A stretch of DNA of 64,000 bases from an uncultured bacterium (lineage in GTDB: Bacteria > Patescibacteriota > Patescibacteriia > UBA9570 > XYC2-FULL-38-9), in assembly GCA_937996685.1 (NCBI GenBank), contig CALKUP010000016.1, positions 18,284 through 82,283 on the forward strand. Direction: 5' to 3'. Of this stretch, positions 14,511 to 63,205 are shown piece after piece. The notes under the pieces are model-generated. The model did no database searches, was not told where the DNA came from, and saw only the letters and a program-made list of their open reading frames with translations. A program made the position numbers and the translations under genes. Position 1 is the stretch's first letter. Each line of letters opens with the position of its first letter.

Positions 14511-14619
14511 ATTCACTTCTTCCGTCTTTTTGCTGAATTTGCTATAGTATAAATAATACTATTTCCGCAAACATGTGCGAGATTTGCTCGTAATACGTTT
14601 GATTATTTTTATCATCACT

Positions 14620-17600: not shown

Positions 17601-18684
17601 TTCAACTAGCAGAATTGCAACCGCATCTGAAGCTGATCGGAATGCTAAAAATTTTTGGGGTGATGATGATTCTTCAGAATCAGGTTGGTCAACAGCAGCT
17701 GATGCTGCAGAAGCGCCTGTTGATGTTAATGAGTCAGAAGTTTCAGAAGACAAAAAAGCTGAACTGCGAGCTAAAATGGAAGAGGTCTTTCAAAGACTTA
17801 AGGCCCTTGGCGTTGTTGTTGGTGATGTACAGTCTCTATTAGAAAACGCAATTTTTAGGACAAGTGGTGTGTATTCAGGTGGATATATCTATTTACATTC
17901 TCTGGGTAATCAAAATTTACAAATTAGCCTTCCGAGGGCTATTGAGCGACAAGCAGATGCATCTGCTGCCCACCGCTTTGAAGGTGTGCTGACTATTAAT
18001 AGCTTGTTTCTAGGGTCTGGGGAAGATGTTGCTGACTGTGAGATGCAGCTGGATTCAGATCAGTCATCGTGGGAATTTCGTCTTTCTGAATTAGAAGATT
18101 TGATTACTAATGGAAATATTTCAGAATCTCTAGAAAGGTGGGGTTTTCGCTTTGTTGAGTCAGATAGTGCTGCGCCTGCGGAAGTAGCGGCACCAGTAAA
18201 AACCGAAGCACCGAAAAAGCCGGACGCAGTAGCAGCGGTTCCATCGCTTGAATCTATTTTGCCGGCTGGAAAGACAATTGATCGGTATGTCGCTGAGCTG
18301 CGACCGCGTGCTGCTGAAATAAAGAAAATGATTACAGATACTCTTGGCATGTGGCAAATGATCAGATTAGCTGGACGAACAGGTGAATTACAAGCGCTTG
18401 TTCCAGAATTAACTGAATTACTTGATCGAGTGACGGTGGCAAAAAAAGCAATTCGTGATAAACGAAAAAGAACGGATTCAGATCCTGAGATTATTACAGC
18501 TCATACGGCTGAATTACAATTTGTTCAAGAGTTGTCACAGCTTTTTTCAGATCAAGGAATTCGTGGAATTGCAGCAAGTGCAGATACGGTTAACAATTTT
18601 ATTGATAAAAAGTTGCCTGTATTGAAGGGTAAGGCAAAGAAAATAGTAGAATCATACGATGCTATTACCCGCACCATGAAGTAA
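14620..18684 (+). CDS. giant (1355 aa) hypothetical cytoplasmic protein with P/A/E-rich linkers and an internal ~140-aa tandem duplication
   Basis: ATG at 14620 (MGRTTKEGRREK...). The track ORF starts at 14575. No signal peptide, basic N-terminus. Low-complexity linkers (PTPADPQPVAPVEPPE, APAPVAVEAPS, AAPAEVAAPVKTEAPKKP). Repeat 1 ~nt 17176-17600 and repeat 2 ~17749-18170 align (RL..LGV.V.....LL..AI.R.S ... EG...INSL...). Confidence 0.6.
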   Translation: MGRTTKEGRREKVSEPEDQRLARLERRRVVDKARREKEKAAKAASLESNTGTVAETPTSDLVISAEVPEATELITSPAATPLGPTPADPQPVAPVEPPEKTDSKTGSGKGRRDDDPRDRNLRKSERSEAVDYSKPKNNLGRVLSFSTVILDEPTNTVLVPVAVEGAEVIEVQIIYPEFDKFDVKNHADAPYLGQQKIRIVGVTEAAESKDGKVHYRAILEKWRENFVAEQARVEEENDQYLPGDRIHNVSLVLNPSRRAPSRFFVERERNDKKERLYIQAGASSIPDPADPTALSGQYDIEVLSCAGTKIEQDGVPVTLYQAMIVEKTDPTSIETKYDAETLKRELHTKKDADRVDQIRKLPRKKSDFPAPDRIIADNNIYFTVNIGSKDDELNGYFIHEGNNKFLAVRSLLNLLDSQSGQRLEFFPSAEVAVLGELGKKREGRPVFEGVFQHDVEFIGYVRSYEEILRSHEGILRYIDTLTLDEVPGDAQKTLIRSIQKKRSNMMRIVSEMGKGMRGSRVLREFLDDFRSNSVELNIALSTAEQQFGSKINTVEQAEHHEDDLFLFELGAYERRHPSPSIEVMHQRRLDLYKQLIDNEVQRKPGTRLAYQALQAEIAQRNHESDMGRHGRIRGLLAWAKAYAERFPRMFDAQPASVDAEAEKPVAAAVSKAEADNSAGVVEAPKVEVTAPAPGPALAGSAVEAAEAVSPPTVEKVETPATPTAQALFTEKDFDPAIDNGFEDGTTILVQIPGFGYELDGQMVRPDYLVITYFDDASGQMQATPYFNGVPADRPIAFTYSSLEAFSQIRAVTEAEVLTVKTVVPEPEAAPAPVAVEAPSVDSFESDASFVAPEVKERLQDQIKELAARLSRLGVSVTEDILLQSAILRRSPSLEGGDHVSCRITFDSPRNIPLPEALKVKDESNSDIYEGPVFINSLVMYNIDNVKSIDAWIIGLSDANGEQRVMSVSIVELEKLINAKQLPAEYDASGLRLVDSTSRIATASEADRNAKNFWGDDDSSESGWSTAADAAEAPVDVNESEVSEDKKAELRAKMEEVFQRLKALGVVVGDVQSLLENAIFRTSGVYSGGYIYLHSLGNQNLQISLPRAIERQADASAAHRFEGVLTINSLFLGSGEDVADCEMQLDSDQSSWEFRLSELEDLITNGNISESLERWGFRFVESDSAAPAEVAAPVKTEAPKKPDAVAAVPSLESILPAGKTIDRYVAELRPRAAEIKKMITDTLGMWQMIRLAGRTGELQALVPELTELLDRVTVAKKAIRDKRKRTDSDPEIITAHTAELQFVQELSQLFSDQGIRGIAASADTVNNFIDKKLPVLKGKAKKIVESYDAITRTMK

Positions 18685-20011: not shown

Positions 20012-20402
20012 TGGTGGAAATGACGGGACTCACACCCGTGTCTCGCTCGTGAAACATATATCATCTCCATGCTCAGATCGTTTGGTAATTTCGATAATGA
20101 AAACAAAAACGAACAAATGGTTCAGTATCTATCTTTGAGAAATGTCCATTACGCGCCAAAGAATCACGGAATGTAAGTCGCGGTTAAAGTGATACCGCAG
20201 GCAGTCGTAGCGACGTCAGACTGCGGCGATAGTTGCAGAATTTAGGCTGCAACAGGAGCCAATTCAAAAGACGCAAGCTTTGCAGCGGCAGTCTTCAAAC
20301 GGCTAGTGAAGTTTGCACTTCGAATAGTGAGATGTTTTACGAGAACCTCAACTCGACATGCAGATATATGTTGTCAATGAACGGTCAACGATAAACATCC
20401 CC
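20012..20402 (-). ncRNA. ssrA: tmRNA (SsrA), 391 nt
   Basis: Minus-strand RNA. 5-prime GGGGAUG pairs with 3-prime CAUUUCC-A-CCA (G3:U70 wobble as in tRNA-Ala). T-arm ACGGG-UGUGAGU-CCCGU. Internal tag frame GCA AAC UUC ... GCU CCU GUU GCA GCC UAA encodes ...FELAPVAA*. Sits immediately downstream of smpB. Confidence 0.8.
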
Positions 20403-23677: not shown

Positions 23678-24370
23678 ATGAGTCAAAAAACAGCAAAAGA
23701 ACAACGCAAAGCAAACGCAGGCAACGCACAACGCAGCGCCGCGCTTAAAAAATATGGAATCGCCGTTGTCGTGGTATTGGCAGTAGTTGGTTTAATTGCT
23801 GCCATTGTGATGACACGAGAAACCGCCGGTTCTATTTCTGATAAAACACCAGACCCAACAGCTGGCAAGGCTGATGCGGCAGTTGTTGTTCGTGTATATG
23901 AAGATTTTCAATGTCCAGCATGTGCTGGCGTGCAACCAGTGGTTGAAGATTTGATTAAAGAATATGGCGATCGTGTGAAATTTATCTTTAATGATTTCCC
24001 ATTGCCGCAACACAAAAATGCAACGACCGCAGCTGTTGCAGCGCAATGTGTGTTTGATCAAGGAAAATACGTTGAATATGCTGGCGTGTTGTTTTCAAAA
24101 CAGGCAGAATGGGAGTTGTTGTCAACAGAAAAAGCCCAAGATAAATTACGTGGCTATGCACAAGATCTCGGAGTTGATGTGAATAAATTTAATGAATGTG
24201 TGGCAGATTCCGCAACAGCTGACCGTGTGACAGAAGACTTGGAAGAAGGTCGGACGCTTGGTGTGAATTCGACACCATCATTTTTCGTCGGAGATAAAAA
24301 AGTTACCGAAACGCCATTCTCCGCTTCATTGAAAAATGAAATTGACGCAGCGTTAAAAGCCGCGCAATAA
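23678..24370 (+). CDS. DsbA-like thiol:disulfide oxidoreductase, membrane-anchored
   Basis: TM anchor, then ...VVRVYEDFQCPACAGVQPVVEDL... (CPAC active site, thioredoxin fold). Confidence 0.7.
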   Translation: MSQKTAKEQRKANAGNAQRSAALKKYGIAVVVVLAVVGLIAAIVMTRETAGSISDKTPDPTAGKADAAVVVRVYEDFQCPACAGVQPVVEDLIKEYGDRVKFIFNDFPLPQHKNATTAAVAAQCVFDQGKYVEYAGVLFSKQAEWELLSTEKAQDKLRGYAQDLGVDVNKFNECVADSATADRVTEDLEEGRTLGVNSTPSFFVGDKKVTETPFSASLKNEIDAALKAAQ

Positions 24371-24374
24371 ATTC

Positions 24375-24896
24375 ATGACACATTTCGCGCGCTTATTGTT
24401 TGATAATCCATGGACATTGTTCCTGATTCGCGTACTCAACGGCGGCATCTTTTTCTTGTTCGGTCTTGGAAAAGCCGTGCAGCCGCATCAGCAGTTTTAT
24501 GAAGTGATGAAGGTTTATGATATTTTGCCGCAGCAATTTATTCCACCCGTTGGCAGCACGTTGATTTATGTTGATGTGATTATCGGGATATTTTTATTCC
24601 TTGGTTTGTTTACGCGCTTTTCTGCGTGGGTAGTTTCAGGGCTTCTGGTGTTTTATATGGTGATTATTTCTCAGGCTGTTTTGCGTGGTATTCCGCTTGA
24701 AAATTGTGGGTGTTCCGGCGGATACATCGAGCTTGGAACAACACCAGCGCAAGTGCTGACCCGCGACCTGATCATGCTTGCGTCGATGCTGTGGTTCTTA
24801 TTTGCAAAGAGTCGTTCTGCACTTCGGCTTGATGCGTGGGTTGCTGGAAGTGACGAAGATGTGCTAGAAATCACAGCAACAGAAGACGAAGAATAA
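24375..24896 (+). CDS. DoxX/MauE-like small membrane protein with CGCSGG motif
   Basis: Four TM helices and a C-terminal ...IPLENCGCSGGYIELG. Sits between the dsbA-like gene and trxB. Confidence 0.5.
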   Translation: MTHFARLLFDNPWTLFLIRVLNGGIFFLFGLGKAVQPHQQFYEVMKVYDILPQQFIPPVGSTLIYVDVIIGIFLFLGLFTRFSAWVVSGLLVFYMVIISQAVLRGIPLENCGCSGGYIELGTTPAQVLTRDLIMLASMLWFLFAKSRSALRLDAWVAGSDEDVLEITATEDEE

Positions 24897-24922
24897 TATT
24901 TTACATACATTACTTTTTCTAT

Positions 24923-25849
24923 ATGACATACGATTTGATTATTATCGGCGGTTCAGCAGCAGGAGCATCAGCGGCAATTTATGGGGCTCGTCGCAAACTC
25001 AACTTGCTTCTTATTTCTGAAGATTTTGGCGGGGAAGTCGCGCGGTCTGGTGAAGTGGCGAACTATCCGGGTTTTGTGAATATTCAAGGGATTGATTTAG
25101 CGGAAGAGTTCAAAAAACACGTTGAAGCGAATGGTGTTGCGCCAGAATTGAATGTGCGTGTGACGTCAATGAAAAAAGACGGAGATGAATTTGTGATTAC
25201 AGCAACCAAAAATGGTGAAGAAATAACCTATCGTGCGTATGCAGTGATTGTGGCAACCGGTGTGCATCCGCGATATTTGGGAGTACCAGGAGAAGAAGAA
25301 TTTACTGGCAAAGGCGTGACATGGTGCACAACGTGTGACGGTCCATTATTCCGTAATAAAAAGGTGGTGACAATTGGCGGCGGCAACAGCGCACTTGAGT
25401 CCGCATTGATGCTTGCGGAAATTGCGACGCACGTGACATTGATTAACAAAAATGCGACGTTTAAGGGTGAGCAAGTGTTGATTGATAAAGCGACAGCGCA
25501 CGACAATATCGACATTATCTACAATGCAAAGACAGAAAAAATTACTGGTGAGTTAGTAGTGAACGGAGTAGATTATATTGATAGTGAAGGCAGCGCGCAG
25601 CACATTGACGCACAAGGAGTGTTTATTCACATTGGCTTAATTCCAAATAGTGGAATGGTTGGTGAGGATGTTGTGAAAAACCCAATGAAAGAAATTGAAG
25701 TCAATCAAAAATGTGAAACGAATATCGAAGGCTTGTTTGCGGCTGGAGATGTGACAACTGTTCCATATAAACAAATCGCCATTGCGACAGGGCAAGGCGT
25801 GATCGCGTCTTTGTCTGCGATTGAATATCTGAACCGCCGCGGCGCGTAA
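24923..25849 (+). CDS. trxB: thioredoxin-disulfide reductase
   Basis: DLIIIGGSAAGASAAIYGAR (FAD), CTTCDG redox-active disulfide, GGGNSA (NADPH). Confidence 0.85.
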   Translation: MTYDLIIIGGSAAGASAAIYGARRKLNLLLISEDFGGEVARSGEVANYPGFVNIQGIDLAEEFKKHVEANGVAPELNVRVTSMKKDGDEFVITATKNGEEITYRAYAVIVATGVHPRYLGVPGEEEFTGKGVTWCTTCDGPLFRNKKVVTIGGGNSALESALMLAEIATHVTLINKNATFKGEQVLIDKATAHDNIDIIYNAKTEKITGELVVNGVDYIDSEGSAQHIDAQGVFIHIGLIPNSGMVGEDVVKNPMKEIEVNQKCETNIEGLFAAGDVTTVPYKQIAIATGQGVIASLSAIEYLNRRGA

Positions 25850-25917: not shown

Positions 25918-26011
25918 TGAAAAAATAGTTGATCTTTGTCAAAAAATGGGCATCAAAAGCCCGTTCAGAGAAGCAAAAAAAATCCAACCCTTGAATAAAG
26001 AGAGGTTTGCC

Positions 26012-27292
26012 ATGAGCAAATTCGTTTTCGTGCCCCACGAGTCGACCGAGGCTGCTCCCCGGGTGATTCCCGAGGGTTGCTCGCCCGCTTTGGCGCGGTC
26101 GGTTGCTGTCATGAATGAGCTGAGTCTCCAAAGCATCACCTCGCAGGCGCGATTTACGGCCGCCGGTGCTGAGGTCGGCAAAATCCAGATCCGAGCGGTC
26201 TGGGTGCTGGTCGCCGTAACGGTGGTCAGCACACTCATGTCTGCGGGTGCTGGCGGGCTTGGTATTCACCTTCAGGCGGAAGGTTTGGAGTCAGCGTTTT
26301 CGTTTCTCGCGCCGAGCGCTTGCGGCGCAGCGCTCTCGGCGCTGCTCTGGCACCGTGCGGAGCACCGGGCGAAGGCTTTGGGTGCGCCAGAGCTCGGAGA
26401 GCAGTGGCGCAACTATTGCGCCGCGCGGGAGGCGCTGCGCAAAGCGATTTTTCTGTACCGAGCCGGAGTGATTGATGCACGAAGACTGAGCATGGTTTTG
26501 CGGCAAGTGTGCCTACAGGTTTGGGCGGCATCCCCACCTACCGACGAGGAGCTCTTCGCTCGTTGGCAAAGCGAGCAAGACCGATACCTCTTCGAGGATG
26601 GTGACGATGGGTTTTCGAAATTGGAGCTGGATCATTACGTCCAGCTCCGGACTGAAGGCCAGAAAGTCTGGATGGACGGAAGGCTAAAAGGCAAGCTCGC
26701 GAAGCTGCGTGAGGTGCACATCGCCCGTTTGCGCCAGATTCAGCTCTGGCAGGCGAGTGTCCGGTGGCTGCCATTTATTGGCGAAGCGGTTAGTGCACTC
26801 ATTGGTCGCCTGAGTTTGATTGAGGATCAGCGCTATGAGTGGCTGGCGGTCGAGAAGACCATTGCCGGCTACACTGAGGTCATCGAACAGATGGCCACGC
26901 CGCTGACTGCCTACCAAGAGTTTCTCATGCACTGTGCGGAAGCGCTGTGTGAGAAACTTGCAGAAGGCGATGCTGACAAGGCTCTGTATATTCACGGGAC
27001 CCTTGAGGGATTCGTCGGCCTGCCTCAGTTGACGCGTAAGATTGCTGAAGCGTTTGTTGCAGAGCGTTTCCCTGGCTCAGAGGAAGCGTTTACTGCCTGG
27101 AAGGAAGCGGAGCGTAAGTTCCTCCCCGAGCTGGCAAAGGTCACCGAGAACATTCTCGGTGCCGAGCACGCCGATTGGCTGCGCTTTCGCGTTACCGCAA
27201 CCAATAGCCTCGAGCAAGCGCTTTCGAGTATCTTCCTCCGCGGCGTCGCGGAAGGTGCTCCAAGCGGCGAAGGCGCAGAAGTCCCCGCATAG
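26012..27292 (+). CDS. hypothetical protein (GC-rich island)
   Basis: ATG at 26012 with an AGAGAGG SD. 426 aa and helical. The 3-prime end (…GEGAEVPA*) lies inside the first copy of a 133-bp repeat. Confidence 0.5.
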   Translation: MSKFVFVPHESTEAAPRVIPEGCSPALARSVAVMNELSLQSITSQARFTAAGAEVGKIQIRAVWVLVAVTVVSTLMSAGAGGLGIHLQAEGLESAFSFLAPSACGAALSALLWHRAEHRAKALGAPELGEQWRNYCAAREALRKAIFLYRAGVIDARRLSMVLRQVCLQVWAASPPTDEELFARWQSEQDRYLFEDGDDGFSKLELDHYVQLRTEGQKVWMDGRLKGKLAKLREVHIARLRQIQLWQASVRWLPFIGEAVSALIGRLSLIEDQRYEWLAVEKTIAGYTEVIEQMATPLTAYQEFLMHCAEALCEKLAEGDADKALYIHGTLEGFVGLPQLTRKIAEAFVAERFPGSEEAFTAWKEAERKFLPELAKVTENILGAEHADWLRFRVTATNSLEQALSSIFLRGVAEGAPSGEGAEVPA

Positions 27293-28465: not shown

Positions 28466-29293
28466 ATGGATGAAGAAATCGTGTCACAAAACCCTGTCCC
28501 TGCAGAGCCGCTTGTTGCTCCAACACCTCCCCCAATTCCGGAGGAGTCATTTTGGTCTCGTTGGAAAGGGATTATTCTGTTAATCGCTGCGATGTGCGCA
28601 ATCGGCTTGTTTGGGTTGTTGATTTATCGAACCACAGTCTATGTGGGGAAAATTCAACGCGGCGAAGTGATTGATGTCAGTGCGTTCAGTAATAACACAA
28701 GTGCATCACAGTTGTCGGATACGGGTATTCAAAAAATTGAAACAGTGAATAATGAAGCGGTGAATAATTTTGCGGATGATCCGAGCATTGGCCCAGAAAA
28801 TGCAGCAGTCACGCTTGTGATGTTTGAAGATTTTGAGTGCCCGTATTGCGAGCAATTATTTCCAGTGATCGTTGCAGCGCGTAAGCAATATGCGAATGAT
28901 ATTCGCTTTGTGTACCGCGATTTTCCACTGACGGATATTCACCCAAATGCGCAGAAAGCAGCGGAGGCCGGAAATTGTGCGAATGCCCAAGGAGCGTTTT
29001 GGACATATCATGATCTGTTATTTCGAAATCAAGATAAGCTGACTGTTCCGGACTTAAAAAAATATGCTCAAACAACGGGATTGGATACAGAGAAATTCAA
29101 CACCTGTTTAGATTCTGGGGAATACGCAGATGAAGTGCAACAAGATTTTGAAGATGGTGTTCGAGCTGGTGTTTCTGGAACTCCGACACTCTTTTTCAAC
29201 GGCAATCCAGTCAAAGGCGCGATTACGCAAAGTGGCTTTGATCAAGTAATGTCGTTGCTATTGCAATCAACGAATCAATCCACAAATCAATAA
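28466..29293 (+). CDS. DsbA-like thiol:disulfide oxidoreductase, membrane-anchored
   Basis: TM anchor, then ...VTLVMFEDFECPYCEQLFPV... (CPYC active site). Confidence 0.7.
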   Translation: MDEEIVSQNPVPAEPLVAPTPPPIPEESFWSRWKGIILLIAAMCAIGLFGLLIYRTTVYVGKIQRGEVIDVSAFSNNTSASQLSDTGIQKIETVNNEAVNNFADDPSIGPENAAVTLVMFEDFECPYCEQLFPVIVAARKQYANDIRFVYRDFPLTDIHPNAQKAAEAGNCANAQGAFWTYHDLLFRNQDKLTVPDLKKYAQTTGLDTEKFNTCLDSGEYADEVQQDFEDGVRAGVSGTPTLFFNGNPVKGAITQSGFDQVMSLLLQSTNQSTNQ

Positions 29294-30449: not shown

Positions 30450-31319
30450 ATGAAACCGACATTTCCAATTGAGGACACAAAAGACTTGGCATTGATGGCG
30501 AATACAATTCGTCAAGATTTATTGAAGGCGATTCATGCCGCGGGTTCTGGTCATCCAGGTGGATCACTTGGGATGGCAGATATTTTTACAATCTTGTATT
30601 TTCATGCGCTGCAGCACGATCCAAAAAAACCGTTATGGACAAAACGCGATCGTTTGGTGCTCAGCAACGGACATATTTGCCCGGTGTTATATGCGACAAT
30701 GGCGCATGCTGGATATTTGTCGATTGATGAGGTGATGACATTACGCAAAATGGGGAGTCGCGTTCAAGGACATCCGCATCGTGAAGAAATTGCAGGATTG
30801 GAAACCAGCTCCGGCCCATTGGGCTCTGGTTTGTCACAAGCTGCTGGAATGGCAATTGCCGCAAAGATGGATGACGCGGGCCATACAGTATTTGCATTAA
30901 CATCAGACGGTGAGCATCAAGAAGGGAATACTTGGGAAGGTGTGATGCTGGCTGGAAAATATCAACTCGATAATCTCGTGCAGATTATGGATCGCAACTA
31001 TATTCAAATTGACGGGAACACGGAAGATGTGATGCCGCTCGATCCAGTGCGTGAAAAATATGAAGCGTTTGGCTGGTGGGTCACAGAAGTTGATGCGCAT
31101 AATTACAAACAAGTGATGAATGCGATTGATCAAGCGAAAAATGTGAAACATAAACCAGCGTTGATTGTTGCGTATACGGTTCCTGGAAAAGGTGTGTCAT
31201 ATATGGAAGATCAATATGGCTGGCACGGAAAAGCGCCGAGTGACGCGGAATTAGAACAGGCTCTTGCTGAGCTGCAAGACATTCGCGCGCAGATCGAAAG
31301 TGGTACCTATGAATATTAA
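30450..31319 (+). CDS. transketolase, N-terminal (TPP-binding) subunit
   Basis: GSGHPGGSLGMADIFTILYFHAL...SNGHICPVLYA...GPLGSGLSQAAGMA. Split two-subunit arrangement. Confidence 0.85.
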   Translation: MKPTFPIEDTKDLALMANTIRQDLLKAIHAAGSGHPGGSLGMADIFTILYFHALQHDPKKPLWTKRDRLVLSNGHICPVLYATMAHAGYLSIDEVMTLRKMGSRVQGHPHREEIAGLETSSGPLGSGLSQAAGMAIAAKMDDAGHTVFALTSDGEHQEGNTWEGVMLAGKYQLDNLVQIMDRNYIQIDGNTEDVMPLDPVREKYEAFGWWVTEVDAHNYKQVMNAIDQAKNVKHKPALIVAYTVPGKGVSYMEDQYGWHGKAPSDAELEQALAELQDIRAQIESGTYEY

Positions 31320-31322
31320 TTG

Positions 31323-32318
31323 ATGTATATGCCTATTAATCCTCTTGTAAAATTATCAAAACATTGGAATACACCAGACGCGTTGGAAAAGCTTGGGACA
31401 CGCGACGGCTTTGGGAAAGGTTTGGTTGAAGCGGCGAAAAAGCACGCAGATATCGTGGGCCTGACAGCAGACCTTGGTGAGTCGACACGGATGCATTTAT
31501 TTGCAGAAGCGTTTCCAAATCGCTTTATTCAAGTTGGTGTTGCCGAACAAAATCTTGTGACTGTCGCAAGTGGTCTCGCAGCAGGTGGAAAAATTCCATT
31601 TGCCAGTGGCTTTGGCGCGTTTACGCCAGGTCGCAATTGGGAGCAAATTCGAACAACGATTTGTTACAACAATCAGCCAGTGCAAGTTGTCGGGACTCAC
31701 ACTGGTATTACTGTTGGTGAAGACGGCGCAACACATCAAGTGTTAGAAGATATTGGATTGATGCGGATGTTGCCAAATATGCGTGTCATTGTTCCAGCAG
31801 ATGCTGAGCAGGCGCGAAAAGCGACATTGGCAATGGCAAAAAATCCAAAGCCGACCTATTTGCGTTTAGGTCGTGAAAAGTTTCCGACGTTCACAACAAA
31901 AAGTACACCGTTTGAAATTGGAAAAGCGGACGTCTATTATCGTGGTTCAGATGTGACGATTATCGCGGCCGGCCCGCAGGTGTACGACGCGTTAATGGTC
32001 GCAGTCGCGTTGAAAGGCACAGTTGCGGTTGAGGTGATTAACATGCACACCATTAAACCATTTGATCTTGAAACAGTATTGAAGTCAGTCAAAAAAACCG
32101 GCGCAGTTGTGACAGTGGAAGATCATCAAATTGCTGGCGGTCTTGGCGGTGCGGTCGCAGAGCAGCTCGCACTGCATTTGCCAGCTCCAATGGAATTCAT
32201 CGGTGTTCATGATGCATTTGGTGAATCCGGAACAGCAAAAGAATTGCTTGAACATTTTCACATTACACAAAAAGATATCATCAAAGCGATTCATTGTGTT
32301 CTTGCTCGGAAAAAATAA
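31323..32318 (+). CDS. transketolase, C-terminal (pyrimidine-binding/C-terminal domain) subunit
   Basis: ...RDGFGKGLVEAAK...GVAEQNLVTVASGLAAGGKIPFASGFGAF... Confidence 0.85.
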   Translation: MYMPINPLVKLSKHWNTPDALEKLGTRDGFGKGLVEAAKKHADIVGLTADLGESTRMHLFAEAFPNRFIQVGVAEQNLVTVASGLAAGGKIPFASGFGAFTPGRNWEQIRTTICYNNQPVQVVGTHTGITVGEDGATHQVLEDIGLMRMLPNMRVIVPADAEQARKATLAMAKNPKPTYLRLGREKFPTFTTKSTPFEIGKADVYYRGSDVTIIAAGPQVYDALMVAVALKGTVAVEVINMHTIKPFDLETVLKSVKKTGAVVTVEDHQIAGGLGGAVAEQLALHLPAPMEFIGVHDAFGESGTAKELLEHFHITQKDIIKAIHCVLARKK

Positions 32319-45957: not shown

Positions 45958-47013
45958 ATGAAGATACTTTTTGCTGCCGGAGGAACAATGGGTTCAGTGA
46001 CGCCGCTCCTGGCTGTGACGCCTGAGTTGCAACAGCGCGGTCACAATATTCTGTTTGTCGGAACAACGTTTGGTCCAGAACAAGCCGTGATTGAAAAGGC
46101 AGGCTTGTCATTTATTGCAATTCCATCAACAAAGCTCCGTCGGTATATGACATGGCGGCATCTATTAGTTCCATTTGAGTTTGCGTTTGCGCTGTCGAAA
46201 TCATTGCAGGTGTTGCGAGCGGAGAAACCAGATGTGATTGTGAGTGCAGGAAGTTTTGTGGCAGTCCCATTGATCTGGGTGGCGCGTTTGCGTGGTATTC
46301 CGGTATTGCTGCATCAACAAGATGTTGTGCCAACCTTGAGTAATGTGTTGTGTGCTCGTGGGGCGCGTCAGATCACGACGGTTTTTGAAGAATCTGTGAA
46401 AGACTTTGCGCGATATCAATCTGCTGAGCGCTCTGTTACTTGGATTGGAAATCCGGTTCGTGATTTGTCTGTAACAACAGACACAATCCGTCCATTGCTT
46501 GATCCACAGATTCCGACAGTCTTTATCGTCGGAGGCGGAACGGGAGCTACTGGCTTAAATGCATTGGTCTCAGAGCGTTTGTGTGATATCGCAAACGTGA
46601 TTCACATGACCGGAAAAAATAAAACAGGTCCAGCAATGCAGCATGCGCGATATCATGCGTTTGAATTTTTGGTTGATGAATATATGGAATGTCTTGCGTT
46701 GGCGGACGTTGTTGTGTCTCGTGCAGGCATCGGAAGTATCACTGAGCTGGCTGCGTGTGGTAAAGCGACTGTCCTTGTTCCGATGCCGCATTCACACCAA
46801 GAGCAAAATGCCGCGTTGGTAGCGCGCCACAAGGCAGCTCTTGTGTTGAAGCAAGCTGATTTGACTCCAGACAGTTTTGCCGGCACACTACAGAATCTCA
46901 TCGCGGATGAGGCTGCTCGGCAAGCGTTATCAGATGCAATGCGTCGTTTATTACCGACGAATGCAAATGCTGCCTTTATTGATAGTATTGAATCATATGA
47001 CAACAATCAGTAG
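45958..47013 (+). CDS. murG: UDP-N-acetylglucosamine--N-acetylmuramyl-(pentapeptide) pyrophosphoryl-undecaprenol GlcNAc transferase
   Basis: MKILFAAGGTMGSVTPLLAV... GT28 fold. Confidence 0.85.
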   Translation: MKILFAAGGTMGSVTPLLAVTPELQQRGHNILFVGTTFGPEQAVIEKAGLSFIAIPSTKLRRYMTWRHLLVPFEFAFALSKSLQVLRAEKPDVIVSAGSFVAVPLIWVARLRGIPVLLHQQDVVPTLSNVLCARGARQITTVFEESVKDFARYQSAERSVTWIGNPVRDLSVTTDTIRPLLDPQIPTVFIVGGGTGATGLNALVSERLCDIANVIHMTGKNKTGPAMQHARYHAFEFLVDEYMECLALADVVVSRAGIGSITELAACGKATVLVPMPHSHQEQNAALVARHKAALVLKQADLTPDSFAGTLQNLIADEAARQALSDAMRRLLPTNANAAFIDSIESYDNNQ

Positions 47014-48370
47014 CGCAAAAAAAATCTATATTGTTGGGATTGGTGGTATTGGAACATCTGCTTTGGCGCAATTGCTTGCTGCTGACGGTGCGCGTGTGGT
47101 CGGCGAAGATATTGCTCAGAGTCCTGTCACAGAGATGTTAACATCGCACGGCATTGATGTGTGGTTTGAAACAAATCCATTAGCTATTGCCGAGGTTGAT
47201 GTTTTGATACACAGCAGCGCAGTGCCGCATGATCATCCGTCTCGGGCATTTGCGCGTGAAAATGGGATTCCGGAGTATACTTACTTTGAAGCTCTTGGGC
47301 AGTACGCACGTCAGTTTGAACATGTGATTGCAGTGTCCGGAACACACGGAAAAACAACAACGACAGCCTTGATTGCAAATCTCCTTGTTGATGCCGGTCT
47401 GAATCCAACAGCGGTGGTTGGCAGTATTGTGAAAGAATTTGGCAATCAAAATAGTCGTCATGGAAGCGCTGATAAAAAATATTTTGTTGTGGAAGCCTGT
47501 GAGCATGAAGCGCATTTCTTATTGTTGCGTCCGACAATGGCGGTGATTACGAATATTGAAGCAGATCATTTAGATTATTATCGTGACCTTGATCACATTG
47601 TGGAAACCTTTCAGACATTTGTGAATGCGTTGCCTGAAAACGATGCAGCGCGTTTGATTGTGAATGCTGATGATTCACGAGCGCGATCTTTGACAACCCA
47701 TGCTCGGCGGGTGACATACGGCATTGAACAAGTGGCGGATATTCAGGCGCTTGATGTTGGAAACGAAGCTGGTCGGCAGTTTTTCACGGTTGCAAATCAT
47801 GCCTATACATTGCATGTGCCGGGCGCGTTTAATGTTAGTAATAGTCTCGCTGCAATTGCCCTTGGCACAGAGCTTGGGATTGCATATGAGGTTATGGAAC
47901 GGAGCTTGTCAGCATTTCACGGAACCTGGCGGCGGTTTGAGCGAGTTGGTGAGTTTCATGATGCTGTAGTTATTTCGGATTACGCTCATCATCCAACCGC
48001 AGTACGGGCAACAATTCGAGCGGCAAAAGAATTTTTCCCAGGCAAACGTATTGTGGCGGTGTTTCAGCCACACCAACGAGCTCGAACAAAAGAGTTGTTC
48101 ACTGAATTCACGCAGTCTTTTATTGAGGCGGACGTTGTGATTATTCAAGAGGTCTATGATGTTGCAGGACGCGAAGAGTCGCAATACGCGGATATCTCAT
48201 CGCAGCATATGATTGACGCATTAAAAGACGCAGAAGGGCAGGTTGCATTGTTTACAAAAACAGCCGCAGACACAAAGCAGGAGCTTGAAAACATTGTTGA
48301 TTCGAATGATATTGTGTTAGTAATGGGAGCTGGTGATATTTATACACTCGCAACAACGCTCGTAAAATAA
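46997..48370 (+). CDS. murC: UDP-N-acetylmuramate--L-alanine ligase
   Basis: In-frame ATG at 46997 (MTTISSAKKIYIVGIGGIGTSALAQLL...) overlapping the murG end. ...VSGTHGKTTTTALIAN... Confidence 0.85.
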   Translation: MTTISSAKKIYIVGIGGIGTSALAQLLAADGARVVGEDIAQSPVTEMLTSHGIDVWFETNPLAIAEVDVLIHSSAVPHDHPSRAFARENGIPEYTYFEALGQYARQFEHVIAVSGTHGKTTTTALIANLLVDAGLNPTAVVGSIVKEFGNQNSRHGSADKKYFVVEACEHEAHFLLLRPTMAVITNIEADHLDYYRDLDHIVETFQTFVNALPENDAARLIVNADDSRARSLTTHARRVTYGIEQVADIQALDVGNEAGRQFFTVANHAYTLHVPGAFNVSNSLAAIALGTELGIAYEVMERSLSAFHGTWRRFERVGEFHDAVVISDYAHHPTAVRATIRAAKEFFPGKRIVAVFQPHQRARTKELFTEFTQSFIEADVVIIQEVYDVAGREESQYADISSQHMIDALKDAEGQVALFTKTAADTKQELENIVDSNDIVLVMGAGDIYTLATTLVK

Positions 48371-58831: not shown

Positions 58832-61800
58832 TTGATATATTGTATATATATGACATCTTTTGATAGATTTCCCCGCGAAAAAAAATCAGACCCAACTGAA
58901 AGAGTTCTTGATGCTTCTGAGCAATCATATTTGAATGCAACTGCTGATATTGCTGAACAGCGATATGCAGCAGATTATGGATTTTATCCAGAAAGTCACT
59001 CGGTTACGCATTATTTGCAAGACTTGCTCGATCGATCGATTCCTGAAGATGAGCGAGGTCATTATACAATAAAAGTAACGCAAGGGTGGGAAGAATTCAA
59101 TGCAGGTGCGTTGCCAAATGGTACGATTTTGATATCTGATAGAATGTTGACCTATTGTCAGTATGAAGAAGAGCTGCAGTTTGTGTTGCGGCATGAATAT
59201 ATGCATATTGCGCGACAGCATCATGCGCTTTCTTATCGGAAGCATAAAAGAGTTGATGGAGGTAGTGTCATTGATGCCTTGTATCAAGATATGGGTCAAA
59301 TGCGATTGCATGAGTATGAGGCAGATTTGCGTGCAGGAGTCGATGATAAAGATTTGCCATATAATCTATATGGGGGTATTCGTTTTTTGGAGCGTTTAGT
59401 AGAAACAGAGCGAGCAACAAAGCAAGCAAGTGGCATTGTGCACGGTGATACAATGGATCGATTATTAAACCTCCATTTTGTAACTCGCATGGTTGATAGC
59501 GCAGCGCTCAATCGTGACCTTACTAAAATTTCTCCTGAAATTATTGCAGAACTTGAATCGAAGCGCTCTTTGAAGTCCATTGTTTTTGAGCGGCCATTAG
59601 GGAAGGGTCATATAACTCCTGAGTCTATTGCAGAAACAGCAAAAGCAGCACTGCGGGTTGCGACACCTGACCAGCTGCAAATTATTATCCCTGAATTATA
59701 TAACTATATTTCAGAGCTTGAGGTTGGTGCTCGTAGTGGACGTAGTTCTACCTCAAGGACATATGATTTAGATGTGCGCACTGAATTGCTGCAGGTTGCA
59801 ATAGAGCGCATGGCAACTGTTTTGCAAGAAGAATTAAAAACCGTGCCAGCTGCAAATCGTCCAGCATTGCGAGGTTTGTATGCGGGGCTTGTGTACGGGA
59901 TCTCGCCTGATTCAGTAGAGGATACAAATATATTTAACGGCATGTTCGACTTCTTTGAAGATGTAGAAGATTTTTTACAATTACCGGCATTGCTCGACAG
60001 TATTGCAGAGAGGGGTGTGTATCCAAATCAAGCACCAGAAATACTACTCCGTTCAATTATACGAGAAGCAGGGGCTGCCTCTGTATTTGTTGATGAGGAC
60101 GATCTATTTAGTGAGCAAAAATTTACTGACTATTGCCGTGATGTTGTTGCTGCAGTTGATCGATTGTACCAATATAAGTCAGACTACAAAAAAACAACAC
60201 TGATCGCTGCCTTTATCGCAGAAGCTTTACTCGATCTTTCGTCGGATGAGCAAAGTGATTTTGTGGTAGTTGCTGCAAAAAATTTATCGATAAAAGTAGA
60301 GGATGTTATTTTATATGCAGAGAAGTATTTGCATATTTCTCTGAAGGTTTTGCCCAATGCAGATGTAAGTGTGCCTGAAACAGAGGAGTCTATTTTTTGG
60401 AATCGCATCTATGCTGTGTGTCGTGAAATCAAGTACATGGACTCAGCACCTTCTAAGGCTCCAGTAGTGCGTGCTTCTCTTGAAAAAACGAAATCTCGCC
60501 GAGAACTATTCAATGAATTAGAAGATATGTGTTCTCAATTGCCTTGGAATACAATGCAAGAGTGTGTGGATGGATTTTCCCGTCTTGTTGAGGGCGAATT
60601 GTCTGCTGAGCAAGAAGTATTTCTTGAGGTTGTTTCTACGTACCCATCTGTACTTCTTAGTCCAGAGCGTTTCACTGGTGTGTCTACTGCTAGAATGTTA
60701 AAGCATGTGCTAGAGCTGCAAAATAACCCATATATGAATCCTGGTGAAGGCGCAGTCTGCCTTGTCGATATTATGACAGGAGCGTATAACAACCGTCTTT
60801 TTGACCCAAGTTTATTAGAATGGGGCATTACAGAGCATGATCTTACCGTTGAGCAAGTACACGCTGCAATGTTTGCGGAAGATCCAGATTCAGCTATTGG
60901 TACGCATTACGATACGAGTGTATCTAGCTTTGACGCATTATACAGGAGTTATTTTTTTACCGTAGCGACGCACGAACTACGTCATTTATCACGCGCGGAA
61001 TTTTTTCAAAAATTACGTGAACGAGCTTCTATAAAACCGAAAGAAGGTAATATTTCTCAAGCATTGATTTTTGTGAACGAGGTGTTTGATGCATATTCAT
61101 TTTCATTAACAGACAAATCATCATTGGATGAATTATTAACGTTGAGCGTGTATGTCCCTGACTTTGAATTGTCAAATCGTTTACAGGAAGGTGTTATGGC
61201 GGCATTATTTCAATATTCAGATACAGCTGAATTAGAAGAAGTATTATTTCGAGATGAGCGAACTCGATATTTGCTTTTAGCAAATGCACGGCATCAATTT
61301 ATTGACGAACGATTAAATACACCAGCGGCTTTAGATCGTACGCTTGATATGGTGCGTCGTGATCGCCTGATTGAAGATCAAGTATTACAAGAGCGGGTGA
61401 GTGACGCGATTCTTGCAGAGGAATCCTTGAGTCGATTATTGCGTAATCCGAGAATGTTTATAGAAATTGGATTGAGCACACAGTCTTCAGATTACAATTT
61501 AAAAAAAGAATTACTTACCGCAAGTCTTTATGCATCTACTCATTCTGAAACAATTAATGACTCGTCCGATCTTGACCGGTTGCAGAATCTAGATTTAATC
61601 ATACGTCGTTTATATGAAATGGATAAATCGACAAAACATGCTGTTATTCGAAAGTTGTTTGTTGGCGAGCACGGCTTATTAAACGATTCAAAGGAGTTGC
61701 AAAAATTTATTACAACGATGTGCAGTGAGCACATCATTGAGCCTCGAGATGATTCTGAGGCCGCTTTGCTTTCAGGTGTAAAAGATGCTCTTATTGCTGT

Positions 61801-63205
61801 TGTCAAAAACGCTGATCCGTCAACGATATATTTTATGCTTGCCCCATTTTTATTTGAACATATGTTCAAAGTCCCGGCTCAACAAGCCGCATGGAGTGAT
61901 ATTATTGACGATGTTATTGGGTCGCATGATAGATATCATTTTGGTGATATTACCCCTGACCTGAAAAAAGAAATGGCGCTTGCTGTTAGTGGTAAGAAGA
62001 TTAATGGACAAGAGGCGGATTACTCAGAGATAGATGAAGGACGATTACGTTTAATGGCTTTTGTGGATGAATATGCGCCATTACCAGAAAAACAGCCAAC
62101 TCCTGAAAAATTAGGGATTATTGAATTTACTAAAACTATTATTGGGCAATTAGGGGCTCCGGGGGTCCGGTTGATGCAAGTTATTGGGCAATATGTGCAA
62201 ATGACTCCAGAATTAGAGCGAGCATTTTCTGATGTATACGACTCGGTTCCAGGTCAGACAAAGTTATCAGCATTTCACACAGTGAAACGTGAGTGGTCTT
62301 CGGTTGCGTCTGAGCTTGAAGAATGGGAGGCATCTGTTGGTGGAGGTTCGCTTGCGACTGTGTGGAAAGCAAAGACAAGTAATGGTGCAGAAGCATTGAA
62401 AGTATTAAATCCAAATGTCGATTTTTTTGTTGATTCTATTTGCGATATTTTAGAAAAAGCATTTTCTTCAATGGAAGGGAAATATGGAAGAAAGGCAAAA
62501 CTTGCGGAACTTGCAATTCGTGATATTCGTGCATGGTTACACGCAGATATTCAGTACGATCATTTTCTAGAACGTGATGCTGTATTTTTTCGGGACCATA
62601 ATAATTTTTCAATTGATGATTCAGGGTATGTTATTCGTGTTCCAAAAACATACGGAGCAGAATCTCGTCACTATAAGCGCGAAGAATGGATTGAAGGAAA
62701 AAATTTAACAAAAACAGAAGAATTGCAAGCATCAAGGCACGATGTAAAAAAAATTATACGTTTGTTAATTGCAAGTACGTTTCATCAGATAACACTTGGG
62801 CAAGTGCATTCTGATATACATCCAGGAAATATCCGCATTACCCAAAATAATGAAGTTGCTTTATTAGATAGAAATTTTTATATTGAGTTAAATGCAGCAG
62901 AACAAGAGGTGATAGTAAGTATTATAGCAAGTGATGATGTGGCTCGTAAGCAAGTATTTATTGACTATCTATTAAGCCTTTCTGAAAATAACAGTGTTCA
63001 GCGTAGAACATTAACGGAGGCATTTGACCGTGTTGGAGGCAAGACGCCTGAAGCAGATCGAGTGGCTGAATATATTAGTATTGCGAAAGAACTTGAGGTC
63101 TACGTTCCATTAAAAGTAACAATTCTTGTGAAGAATTTTCTCGCATTGAATAAATTAGCAGTGAGTGGTGGTTTCCAGGGCATCAATGAAGCGCTATTTA
63201 CTTGA
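58832..63205 (+). CDS. giant (1457 aa) fusion protein: N-terminal M48-like HExxH metalloprotease motif + C-terminal UbiB/ABC1-like atypical kinase domain
   Basis: N-terminus: ...FVLRHEYMHIARQHH... with downstream ...LHEYEADLRAG (HExxH...E..AD as in M48/HtpX). C-terminus: ...ASVGGGSLATVWKAKTSNGAEALKVLNPNV... and ...HSDIHPGNIRI...LLDRNFY resemble ABC1/UbiB kinase motifs. Long helical middle region with no known domain. Alternative start M7 at 58850. Confidence 0.6.
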   Translation: MIYCIYMTSFDRFPREKKSDPTERVLDASEQSYLNATADIAEQRYAADYGFYPESHSVTHYLQDLLDRSIPEDERGHYTIKVTQGWEEFNAGALPNGTILISDRMLTYCQYEEELQFVLRHEYMHIARQHHALSYRKHKRVDGGSVIDALYQDMGQMRLHEYEADLRAGVDDKDLPYNLYGGIRFLERLVETERATKQASGIVHGDTMDRLLNLHFVTRMVDSAALNRDLTKISPEIIAELESKRSLKSIVFERPLGKGHITPESIAETAKAALRVATPDQLQIIIPELYNYISELEVGARSGRSSTSRTYDLDVRTELLQVAIERMATVLQEELKTVPAANRPALRGLYAGLVYGISPDSVEDTNIFNGMFDFFEDVEDFLQLPALLDSIAERGVYPNQAPEILLRSIIREAGAASVFVDEDDLFSEQKFTDYCRDVVAAVDRLYQYKSDYKKTTLIAAFIAEALLDLSSDEQSDFVVVAAKNLSIKVEDVILYAEKYLHISLKVLPNADVSVPETEESIFWNRIYAVCREIKYMDSAPSKAPVVRASLEKTKSRRELFNELEDMCSQLPWNTMQECVDGFSRLVEGELSAEQEVFLEVVSTYPSVLLSPERFTGVSTARMLKHVLELQNNPYMNPGEGAVCLVDIMTGAYNNRLFDPSLLEWGITEHDLTVEQVHAAMFAEDPDSAIGTHYDTSVSSFDALYRSYFFTVATHELRHLSRAEFFQKLRERASIKPKEGNISQALIFVNEVFDAYSFSLTDKSSLDELLTLSVYVPDFELSNRLQEGVMAALFQYSDTAELEEVLFRDERTRYLLLANARHQFIDERLNTPAALDRTLDMVRRDRLIEDQVLQERVSDAILAEESLSRLLRNPRMFIEIGLSTQSSDYNLKKELLTASLYASTHSETINDSSDLDRLQNLDLIIRRLYEMDKSTKHAVIRKLFVGEHGLLNDSKELQKFITTMCSEHIIEPRDDSEAALLSGVKDALIAVVKNADPSTIYFMLAPFLFEHMFKVPAQQAAWSDIIDDVIGSHDRYHFGDITPDLKKEMALAVSGKKINGQEADYSEIDEGRLRLMAFVDEYAPLPEKQPTPEKLGIIEFTKTIIGQLGAPGVRLMQVIGQYVQMTPELERAFSDVYDSVPGQTKLSAFHTVKREWSSVASELEEWEASVGGGSLATVWKAKTSNGAEALKVLNPNVDFFVDSICDILEKAFSSMEGKYGRKAKLAELAIRDIRAWLHADIQYDHFLERDAVFFRDHNNFSIDDSGYVIRVPKTYGAESRHYKREEWIEGKNLTKTEELQASRHDVKKIIRLLIASTFHQITLGQVHSDIHPGNIRITQNNEVALLDRNFYIELNAAEQEVIVSIIASDDVARKQVFIDYLLSLSENNSVQRRTLTEAFDRVGGKTPEADRVAEYISIAKELEVYVPLKVTILVKNFLALNKLAVSGGFQGINEALFT

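Follow-up and report, generated by a model that had tools for sequence, protein, structure and literature searches.

The window analysed here, 64,000 nucleotides of contig CALKUP010000016.1 (assembly GCA_937996685.1), raises the question of whether one very large gene really joins a metalloprotease to an atypical kinase and, if so, what such a protein might do. The open reading frame (ORF) concerned was described in the initial annotation, which was made from the letters of the DNA, as a fusion of an M48-like HExxH protease motif with a UbiB/ABC1-like kinase domain. It is single and unbroken on the + strand, and all of the motifs quoted for it (HEYMH, EYEAD, GGGSLATVW, ALKVLNPNV and HSDIHPGN) were found in its translation.

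58832..63205, + strand: whole ORF, 1,457 codons from TTG 58832; probable start at the in-frame ATG 58850, giving 1,451 amino acids (aa); TGA stop at 63203-63205

The product is identical to the database protein P0001, which starts at ATG 58850 with the N-terminus MTSFDRF... and is 1,451 aa long; residues are counted from this ATG, i.e., as in the initial annotation minus 6. P0001 comes from a metagenome-type contig of 155,422 nt and forms a singleton cluster at 90% identity. The gene encodes a genuine, conserved single polypeptide in which a complete M48 protease is combined with an ATP-binding domain of the UbiB fold, and the identities of the two domains are near-certain. As to its role, the explanation favoured here, with a probability of roughly 45%, is that of a latent, His-switch-inhibited cytoplasmic metalloprotease that would be gated in cis by the UbiB-type domain.

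A Pfam scan, which had been proposed as a check on the fusion, placed both domains above the curated cut-offs: PF03109 (ABC1) scored 67.3 bits against a cut-off of 22.9 (E-value, 1.5e-18; residues 1162-1366), and PF01435 (Peptidase_M48) scored 32.7 bits against 20.3 (E-value, 8e-8; residues 73-135). The usual transmembrane (TM) helices had been reported as missing, and the hydropathy scan agrees, since no hydrophobic segment of P0001 attains a TM-like score; the N-terminus is hydrophilic, and no signal peptide was seen. The two halves of the protein were modelled separately from six-sequence alignments (mean predicted local distance difference test (pLDDT) of 65-68), and both yielded confident domain models. 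A soluble fusion of M48 and UbiB/ABC1 domains is thus backed by the sequence, the predicted fold, and the conservation of catalytic residues in about 150 relatives.

A word-indexed search with the single sequence returned five relatives, all of the same architecture and 1,451-1,684 aa in length. An exhaustive HMMER search of 1.84 billion cluster representatives, with the N-terminal 1,090 residues as the profile, revealed 296 proteins (clusters) at E <= 1e-30, with a median length of 1,524 aa among the 146 newly listed sequences. The architecture, which the initial annotation suggested seeking in other genomes, therefore recurs throughout a family that comprises about 300 clusters when drawn at 50% identity, and is not a one-off. 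When 146 representatives of the 296 were scored with local hidden Markov models (HMMs) for four segments, 138 were found to carry the M48, pre-kinase and kinase segments in this fixed order and in single copy, with helices between the M48 and pre-kinase segments. The eight exceptions are all short, and the one that was checked (P0113) stops 36 nt before the contig end. A sequencing error or a split ORF had been named as what could undo the fusion; because 138 of the 146 independent cluster representatives have a like architecture and a similar length, the ORF is not the product of a frameshift or misassembly. A split version, with a gene for the kinase half beside an M48 gene, was sought and not found: P0165 is an internal deletion, P0166 is cut by the contig start, and P0113 lies near a contig end.

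Scans of genomes and metagenomes, for which a four-sequence alignment was used (the six-sequence version being too divergent), added seven more loci. The metagenome-assembled genomes (MAGs) that carry loci L003-L007 are labelled in their submitter titles as Pseudomonadota (31.6% GC), Micrarchaeota (an archaeon), Planctomycetales, Gammaproteobacteria and Omnitrophota; these mixed labels reflect either a very wide distribution or transfer of the gene, or, for some of them, mis-binned contigs. Among standalone relatives, 97 of 120 have no TM-like segment, and N-terminal TM-like anchors were seen in a few members (P0004, the L003 protein, and 7 of the 120 representatives); most members are soluble and probably cytoplasmic. 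Searches of the literature turned up no account of M48-ABC1 fusions, nor of UbiB-like proteins from Patescibacteria or from giant proteins; the architecture is previously undescribed and widespread, and it comes with a divergent UbiB subfamily.

The protease part of the protein comprises the following features.

58922..59512, + strand: M48 (BepA/3C37-like) zinc-metallopeptidase domain, residues 25-221
59192..59206, + strand: HEYMH, the HExxH zinc-binding/catalytic motif (H115, E116, H119), from family conservation, with verified coordinates
59207..59311, + strand: 'lid' segment, residues 120-154, short, hydrophilic and basic, which replaces the hydrophobic alpha6-lid of BepA; sequence IARQHHALSYRKHKRVDGGSVIDALYQDMGQMRLH
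59312..59326, + strand: EYEAD, third zinc ligand Glu155 and latch Asp159 (= BepA E201, D205), aligned to 3C37 and BepA
59441..59461, + strand: HGDTMDR, the M48 'HPx4R' autoinhibitory-plug motif (H198, R204), with H198 on 3C37 His-208

The first 200 residues make up a complete M48 zinc peptidase of the BepA/3C37 type, with putative activity. The family profile matches 3C37 with an E-value of 1.3e-17, and the predicted model adopts the three-dimensional M48 fold. In the family alignment, H115, H119, E155 and H198 are invariant (157/157), and E116 (156/157), D159 (155/157) and R204 (154/157) are nearly so. H198 aligns with 3C37 His-208, which equals BepA His-246, and R204 is the equivalent of BepA R252. 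According to the literature, His-246 of BepA keeps the catalytic water out by serving as a fourth ligand of the zinc (the 'histidine switch'); BepA further has the HPx4R plug and an R252-D205 latch, and its hydrophobic alpha6-lid inserts in the membrane to release the plug (PMC13655028). The alignment indicates that the whole of this plug apparatus (H198-G-x4-R204 together with D159) is retained in the family: the Pro of the plug motif is replaced by Gly (136 sequences) or Gln (20 sequences), and the spacing from His to Arg is the same as in HPx4R. The lid has a family-wide median of 30 residues, is not hydrophobic, and aligns as gaps against the longer insert of BepA and 3C37; in the model, lid residues 129-151 have a pLDDT below 50. 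Known M48 proteases are membrane-associated (PMC13655028), a trait typical of M48 but not defining, and no sign of it was seen in this protein, with no TM segment or signal peptide and with a lid that is short and hydrophilic. The solubility that the initial annotation called unexpected is indeed unusual, yet it has precedents, as BepA and 3C37, the proteins nearest to the window domain, are soluble too.

At the other end of the protein, the kinase-like part has the features listed below.

62117..63202, + strand: UbiB/ABC1-fold atypical kinase-like domain, residues 1090-1451, including the N-terminal KxGQ-type extension
62168..62179, + strand: RLMQ, counterpart of the UbiB-invariant KxGQ (R1107, Q1110), from motif alignment
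62339..62350, + strand: GGGS, glycine-rich nucleotide-binding loop in place of the UbiB 'AAAS' A-rich loop, from family conservation
62399..62401, + strand: Lys1184, beta3 ATP-binding lysine (within ALKVLNPN), aligned to the VAVK lysine of Rv3197
62546..62548, + strand: Asp1233, probable alphaC acidic partner of Lys1184, from covariation
62807..62830, + strand: HSDIHPGN, catalytic loop (D1322, N1327), aligned to HGDAHPGN of Rv3197
62867..62875, + strand: DRN, metal-binding Asp1340 (DFG equivalent) and family-specific Arg1341, from family conservation

Judged by its sequence, the C-terminal stretch of 360 residues is a UbiB/COQ8-fold ATP-binding domain with intact catalytic residues. The best sequence match of the kinase half in PDB is Rv3197 (E-value, 4.4e-5), and the predicted model most resembles COQ8A, having a protein-kinase-like fold and the N-terminal extension specific to UbiB. 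The protein is clearly not UbiB proper, as both equivalog models score far below their thresholds (TIGR01982, 56.1 bits against 487.55; PRK04750, 28.6 bits against 667). The argument of the initial annotation, that UbiB kinases normally function in quinone biosynthesis and that such a domain would therefore be out of place in this organism, turned out to be too narrow: the UbiB equivalog fails here (56 bits against 487.55), and structures of UbiB folds unconnected with quinones (Rv3197, MSMEG_1954) have been solved.

Two hallmarks of the UbiB family are altered. KxGQ is described as invariant in the UbiB family, and its Gln holds water for ATP hydrolysis; here the motif reads RLMQ, with the R1107 position occupied by Arg in 143 and by Lys in 4 of 149 sequences, the Gln kept in 148 of 149, and the Gly position not conserved. 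The Ala-rich loop is replaced by GGGS (G1164 in 147/149, G1166 in 148/149 and S1167 in 144/149), which resembles the G-loop of Hanks kinases in a PDB profile alignment. In COQ8A, the A339G change in the A-rich loop gains protein-kinase and autophosphorylation activity and gives a higher ATPase. Residue 1184 is Lys in 114, Arg in 30 and Ala in 5 of the 149 sequences, and residue 1233 is Asp in 118 and Glu in 30. The two positions pair as K-D in 108 sequences, K-E in 6, non-K with E in 24 and non-K with D in 10 (counts uncorrected for phylogeny); this covariation suggests a conserved Lys-acid salt bridge in the ATP site, as a pair of beta3-Lys and alphaC-acid would give. In the catalytic loop, residue 1322 is Asp in 135 and Asn in 12 of 149, and N1327 is kept in 145; D1340 is found in 147 and R1341 in 142. 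The window protein has K1184, D1322, N1327 and D1340, and the full set is present in 98 of the 149 relatives.

Between the two enzymatic domains lies a helical linker, which falls into three parts.

59513..60319, + strand: post-protease helical domain, residues 222-490, confidently predicted, of no known family
60320..61276, + strand: variable helical middle, residues 491-809, of low pLDDT and poorly conserved against the copies in giant ORFs
61277..62116, + strand: conserved 'pre-kinase' helical domain, residues 810-1089, conserved in the copies in giant ORFs

The linker had been described as about 1000 residues of helical sequence of unfamiliar family; its helical nature and the want of a family are borne out, and its length is not, as it comprises about 870 residues. 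It is predicted to be all-helical, has no Pfam or NCBIfam match, and no specific structural or family match was found for the middle and pre-kinase helices. The local HMM of the middle detects it in only about half of the relatives. The pre-kinase domain was detected in 142 of the 146 representatives, with G942 of its GExG motif invariant.

The same module was also found inside giant ORFs. In L005 (1-24500; CAYHAI010000102.1, a Planctomycetales-labelled MAG), the entire 24.5-kb locus is one frame of more than 8,166 aa with both ends open, and L007 (509-19309; JALOQJ010000014.1, an Omnitrophota MAG) has an ORF of more than 6,267 aa with an open 3' end. Few ORFs are listed for either locus, and an alternative genetic code was considered and ruled out, as each is a giant ORF running off the locus end. 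Each of the two giants has one module copy, and no other similarity exists between them. In their flanks, Xre-type helix-turn-helix domains, an S-adenosylmethionine (SAM) methyltransferase, a GHKL ATPase, HEAT or TPR repeats, and several TM-like segments were identified; two further giants contain an SF1 helicase, an APH-like domain, and CheR-type and other methyltransferases. When the copies are compared by their kinase domains, those embedded in giants are interspersed with the standalone ones, and the module has therefore moved between both contexts as a unit.

In the favoured reading, the protease would be the output, or effector, of the protein and would be made latent, and the kinase-fold domain would be its regulator. 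The roles are assigned in this way because the protease site is never lost and the kinase site sometimes is: about 12 sequences carry D1322N and 5 carry K1184A, and all of them retain their protease residues. The fourth position on the zinc would be taken by His198 of the HGx4R plug, with Arg204 latched onto Asp159, as in BepA. Because the BepA-type plug is retained but the membrane-triggered lid is lost, the signal for release would most likely come in cis from the UbiB-like domain, as this either binds and hydrolyses ATP or autophosphorylates, and would pass through the helical scaffold to the protease. The Gly-rich loop would fit such a role, as it matches the A-to-G change that raises ATP turnover and autophosphorylation in COQ8A. 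The protein may thus be a protease that is gated by ATP or a ligand and serves regulation or quality control in the cytoplasm, a location that the ATP dependence and the fusion partners found in the giants, which are of cytoplasmic types, would likewise favour. The obligatory order and single copy of the domains, together with the intact module in unrelated giant ORFs, support one functional unit. The gating mechanism, taken by itself, is doubtful.

Several observations weigh against this explanation. The coupling between the domains is one that we infer from the obligatory fusion only, and the half-models, being separate, show neither contacts between the domains nor where the plug lies. Both His198 and Arg204 are conserved in M48 proteins at large, and thus mark an M48-type site, not autoinhibition specifically. 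In about 15-25% of members, the kinase site carries K-to-R/A or D-to-N substitutions, so that catalysis by the kinase domain is not universally required. Across the ten loci, no conserved neighbour gene, operon partner or substrate candidate was found. Finally, P0165 (379 aa; L014 2548-3687 and L015 349-1488, from two independent samples) is an in-frame internal-deletion derivative of a P0002-type gene (L001 6538-11130) and adjoins the same guaA, the GuaA protein being about 98% identical to that of the P0002 organism. It lacks about 1,136 residues, and residues 1-68 run directly into the final ~326, the junction being a shared 'DSV' tripeptide. Since this deletion removed the M48 core, all helices and the RxxQ helix and left the kinase core, the full-length protein is dispensable in at least one lineage.

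The surroundings of individual family members differ. In L009 (113-1629, 7426-8247), P0004, a protein with a signal- or TM-like segment at its N-terminus and a TM segment at its C-terminus, is encoded between AbiEi/AbiEii and a phage-type integrase; in L010 (1046-1255), P0006 follows a MazE-like antitoxin gene; and in L002 (12984-13430), a PIN-domain gene is found near P0005. There are hints that some family copies lie in mobile or defence islands. A defence-system or phage origin was considered as well and is not supported, as the PADLOC matches are marginal and no relative was found in viral contigs. In PADLOC-DB v2, the kinase-fold matches were to PD-T4-6 and MkoA (best E-value, 4.5e-5, 21 bits), and four of the six tested members gave no match at all; the ABC1 domain also has a match to a PHROG whose function is unknown.

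As an alternative to a gated cytoplasmic protease, the protein could be a lipid-linked quality-control machine, analogous to ABC1K and PGM48 in plastoglobules and cyanoglobules, in which the UbiB-like domain would act, like COQ8, as an ATPase activated by membranes or prenyl lipids and handling hydrophobic molecules on the surface of a membrane, the M48 domain would degrade membrane-associated proteins there, and the fusion would be a 'Rosetta stone' of a UbiB-M48 partnership. ABC1K proteins do occur together with an M48 protease, both in the cyanoglobules of Synechocystis and in the plastoglobules of plants (PMC12223511); PGM48 shows co-expression with ABC1K7 and ABC1K3 and becomes more abundant in plastoglobules when ABC1K6 over-accumulates. 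This link is, however, one of co-occurrence in distant organisms, not fusion homology. Likewise, cardiolipin membranes and phenolic lipids activate the COQ8/UbiB ATPase, and the Gln of KxGQ is kept in the family (148/149), but the A-rich loop and the literal KxGQ of lipid-handling UbiB proteins are replaced, and the score lies far under the UbiB equivalog threshold. Known M48 proteases are associated with membranes (PMC13655028), and TM-like N-terminal anchors occur in P0004, the L003 protein and 7 of 120 representatives; against this, no TM-like segment was found in the window protein and in about 80% of standalone relatives, the hydrophobic M48 lid is absent, and no lipid or quinone genes were found in the 64-kb window. 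A lipid-linked role is considered unlikely. Quite unlikely, too, is a mark-and-cut enzyme without allostery, whose kinase would phosphorylate a substrate, making or masking a degron, and whose tethered protease would cleave that same substrate, with the helices serving as a substrate-binding scaffold only. Such an enzyme would be in keeping with the GxGS loop, which resembles that of Hanks-type kinases (profile alignment, 4EQM/9YMT), with the protein-kinase activity that the A-to-G change gives to COQ8A, with the trans-phosphorylation shown by AtABC1K6, and with the fact that protein-binding scaffolds are typically long alpha-solenoids.

A role in conflict, either as anti-phage defence or as a weapon against hosts or prey, would place the module on mobile islands and make it a component of the giant multi-enzyme proteins found in ultra-small cells with a predatory or episymbiotic life. 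The AbiEi/AbiEii and integrase genes around P0004, the MazE-like gene before P0006 and the PIN gene near P0005 would agree with this, as would the module in giant ORFs of Omnitrophota and Planctomycetales-labelled MAGs, since Omnitrophota giants have been linked to predation. The window copy and those of L001, L003, L004 and L006 lie, however, amid housekeeping genes, most members have no signal peptide or secretion-associated domain, and the domains flanking the module in the giants are of cytoplasmic enzyme types. The PHROG match to the ABC1 domain and the weak kinase-type matches in PADLOC (PD-T4-6, MkoA) would count in its favour, but the latter are marginal (E-values of 1e-5 to 1e-2), generic to the kinase fold and missing in four of the six tested members; viral contigs, moreover, yielded no relative. 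A conflict module is considered very unlikely. As for the possibility that the ORF is no functional unit at all, being an assembly or gene-calling artefact or a decaying pseudo-enzyme, the singleton status of P0001 on a metagenome-type contig might seem to favour it, as might a close relative of P0002 from whose interior more than 1,100 residues are missing. The recurrence of architecture and length in 138 independent representatives and several assemblies, the near-invariant catalytic residues, and the confident domain models for both halves leave it practically no chance, and it is effectively refuted by family recurrence and residue conservation.

In the window, the gene sits within a long run of housekeeping genes on the same strand. 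Upstream genes encode MurJ, LepA, FtsW, MurG, MurC, MurB, SecA, a MacAB-like ABC exporter, an S11 D-Ala-D-Ala carboxypeptidase and a SpoU methyltransferase, and a gene for an EamA transporter is located directly downstream. The listed ORFs of MurG (45958-47013) and MurC (46877-48370) overlap by 137 nt, probably because the MurC ORF is drawn at an upstream TTG and the true start lies farther downstream. Elsewhere, the window contains genes for a class II fructose-bisphosphate aldolase, Rpe, a split transketolase, and DUF4012, DUF5671 and DUF4430 proteins. No quinone-pathway or respiratory genes were found among its ~40 annotated ORFs, and no lipid genes were found near the gene or elsewhere in the 64 kb. 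This content is compatible with a bacterium like those of the Candidate Phyla Radiation (CPR)/Patescibacteria, without proving it. Transketolase is encoded by separate N- and C-terminal genes (30450-32318) beside ribulose-phosphate 3-epimerase and near the aldolase, a set that represents a fermentative core-metabolism signature. Two DsbA-like thioredoxin-fold proteins, a MauE/DoxX membrane protein and a thioredoxin reductase (23678-25849 and 28466-29293) resemble an extracytoplasmic disulfide-bond system; DsbB and VKOR were not detected in the window, which is of interest if the organism is truly without quinones. A full-length transfer-messenger RNA gene (Rfam RF00023, 86 bits) is found on the - strand at 20012-20402. 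Two neighbouring DUF4430 proteins are encoded at 574-2969, the second of which also has a prenyltransferase/squalene-cyclase-like alpha-alpha toroid domain at or just under the Pfam cut-offs. Two ORFs lie in islands of about 55-56% GC against a background of about 44% and may be horizontally acquired: one (4428-5810) is Gly/Asp-rich, with a lipoprotein-like signal (…ALAC) and a MopE-type metal-binding motif, and the other (25946-27292) is Ala/Leu/Glu-rich and has no Pfam match. A second very large ORF (14575-18684; 1,369 aa, GTG start) is Ala/Glu-rich and has no Pfam domain.

The role of UbiB/ABC1 proteins, which include COQ8A in human ataxia and the plant ABC1Ks, is debated as that of a kinase, an ATPase or a lipid handler, and the release of an M48 protease from autoinhibition has been worked out in detail so far for BepA only. 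The present family fuses UbiB and M48 in about 300 lineages, with both active sites kept, the loop change that unlocks phosphotransfer in COQ8A occurring naturally, and the membrane-inserting lid that activates BepA absent; for these reasons, it offers a soluble, single-polypeptide bacterial system for testing UbiB-protease coupling. The fusion suggests, too, that a physical link may underlie the joint presence of ABC1K and M48 proteins in plastoglobules. At its broadest, the proposal would be that of a new class of energy-dependent protease, in which a UbiB-type kinase-fold ATPase, not an AAA+ ring, gates a His-switch-inhibited M48 in cis, with the fusion being a Rosetta stone for a general UbiB-M48 partnership (COQ8/ABC1K with OMA1/PGM48). 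We consider so wide a claim improbable; if true, it would give UbiB proteins, a long-enigmatic family, a concrete output at the molecular level.

Among known systems, BepA (E. coli YfgC; 6AIT, 6SAR) and Geobacter 3C37 are the nearest relatives of the M48 domain. BepA is periplasmic, with a TPR domain, an alpha6-lid that inserts in the outer membrane and no nucleotide-binding partner, whereas the window protein has no signal peptide, a short hydrophilic lid, HG instead of HP in the plug, and a helical region of about 870 residues without a TPR signature that ends in a kinase-fold domain. What is new in comparison with the soluble BepA and 3C37 is the apparently cytoplasmic location together with the loss of the hydrophobic lid. 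The match to minigluzincins (selecase MJ1213, 4QHF; proabylysin, 4JIU) is far weaker; these are standalone proteins of about 110 residues, regulated by oligomerisation or by a C-terminal tail, without the BepA-type plug helix region. Compared with COQ8A/ADCK3, Coq8p and UbiB (4PED, 5I35), the window protein has GGGS for AAAS, RxxQ for KxGQ and DRN for DFG, is without a TM segment, is fused to a protease, and has no quinone-pathway context in the window. Rv3197 (MABP-1; 5YJZ) and MSMEG_1954 (7CYR) are mycobacterial UbiB-fold ATP-binding proteins outside quinone biosynthesis.

In plastoglobules and cyanoglobules, ABC1K and PGM48/sll1280 represent the same two enzyme families sharing one compartment. 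They are, however, separate proteins bound to lipid droplets, with canonical A-rich loops and in photosynthetic hosts; no ABC1K-PGM48 fusion has been reported, and their link to the window family is one of analogy. As to the Omnitrophota giant proteins (West-Roberts et al. 2023; bioRxiv 10.64898/2026.06.07.730766), a term search found no occurrence of ABC1, M48 or UbiB in these two papers. The HATPase_c, SAM-methyltransferase, HEAT and TPR domains of the module-bearing giants match the 'Module 1' set described there. The intact module in ORFs of more than 6,000 aa represents one recurrent cassette of these poorly understood, Omnitrophota-like giant proteins, whereas the window gene encodes the same module as a standalone protein of 1,451 aa.

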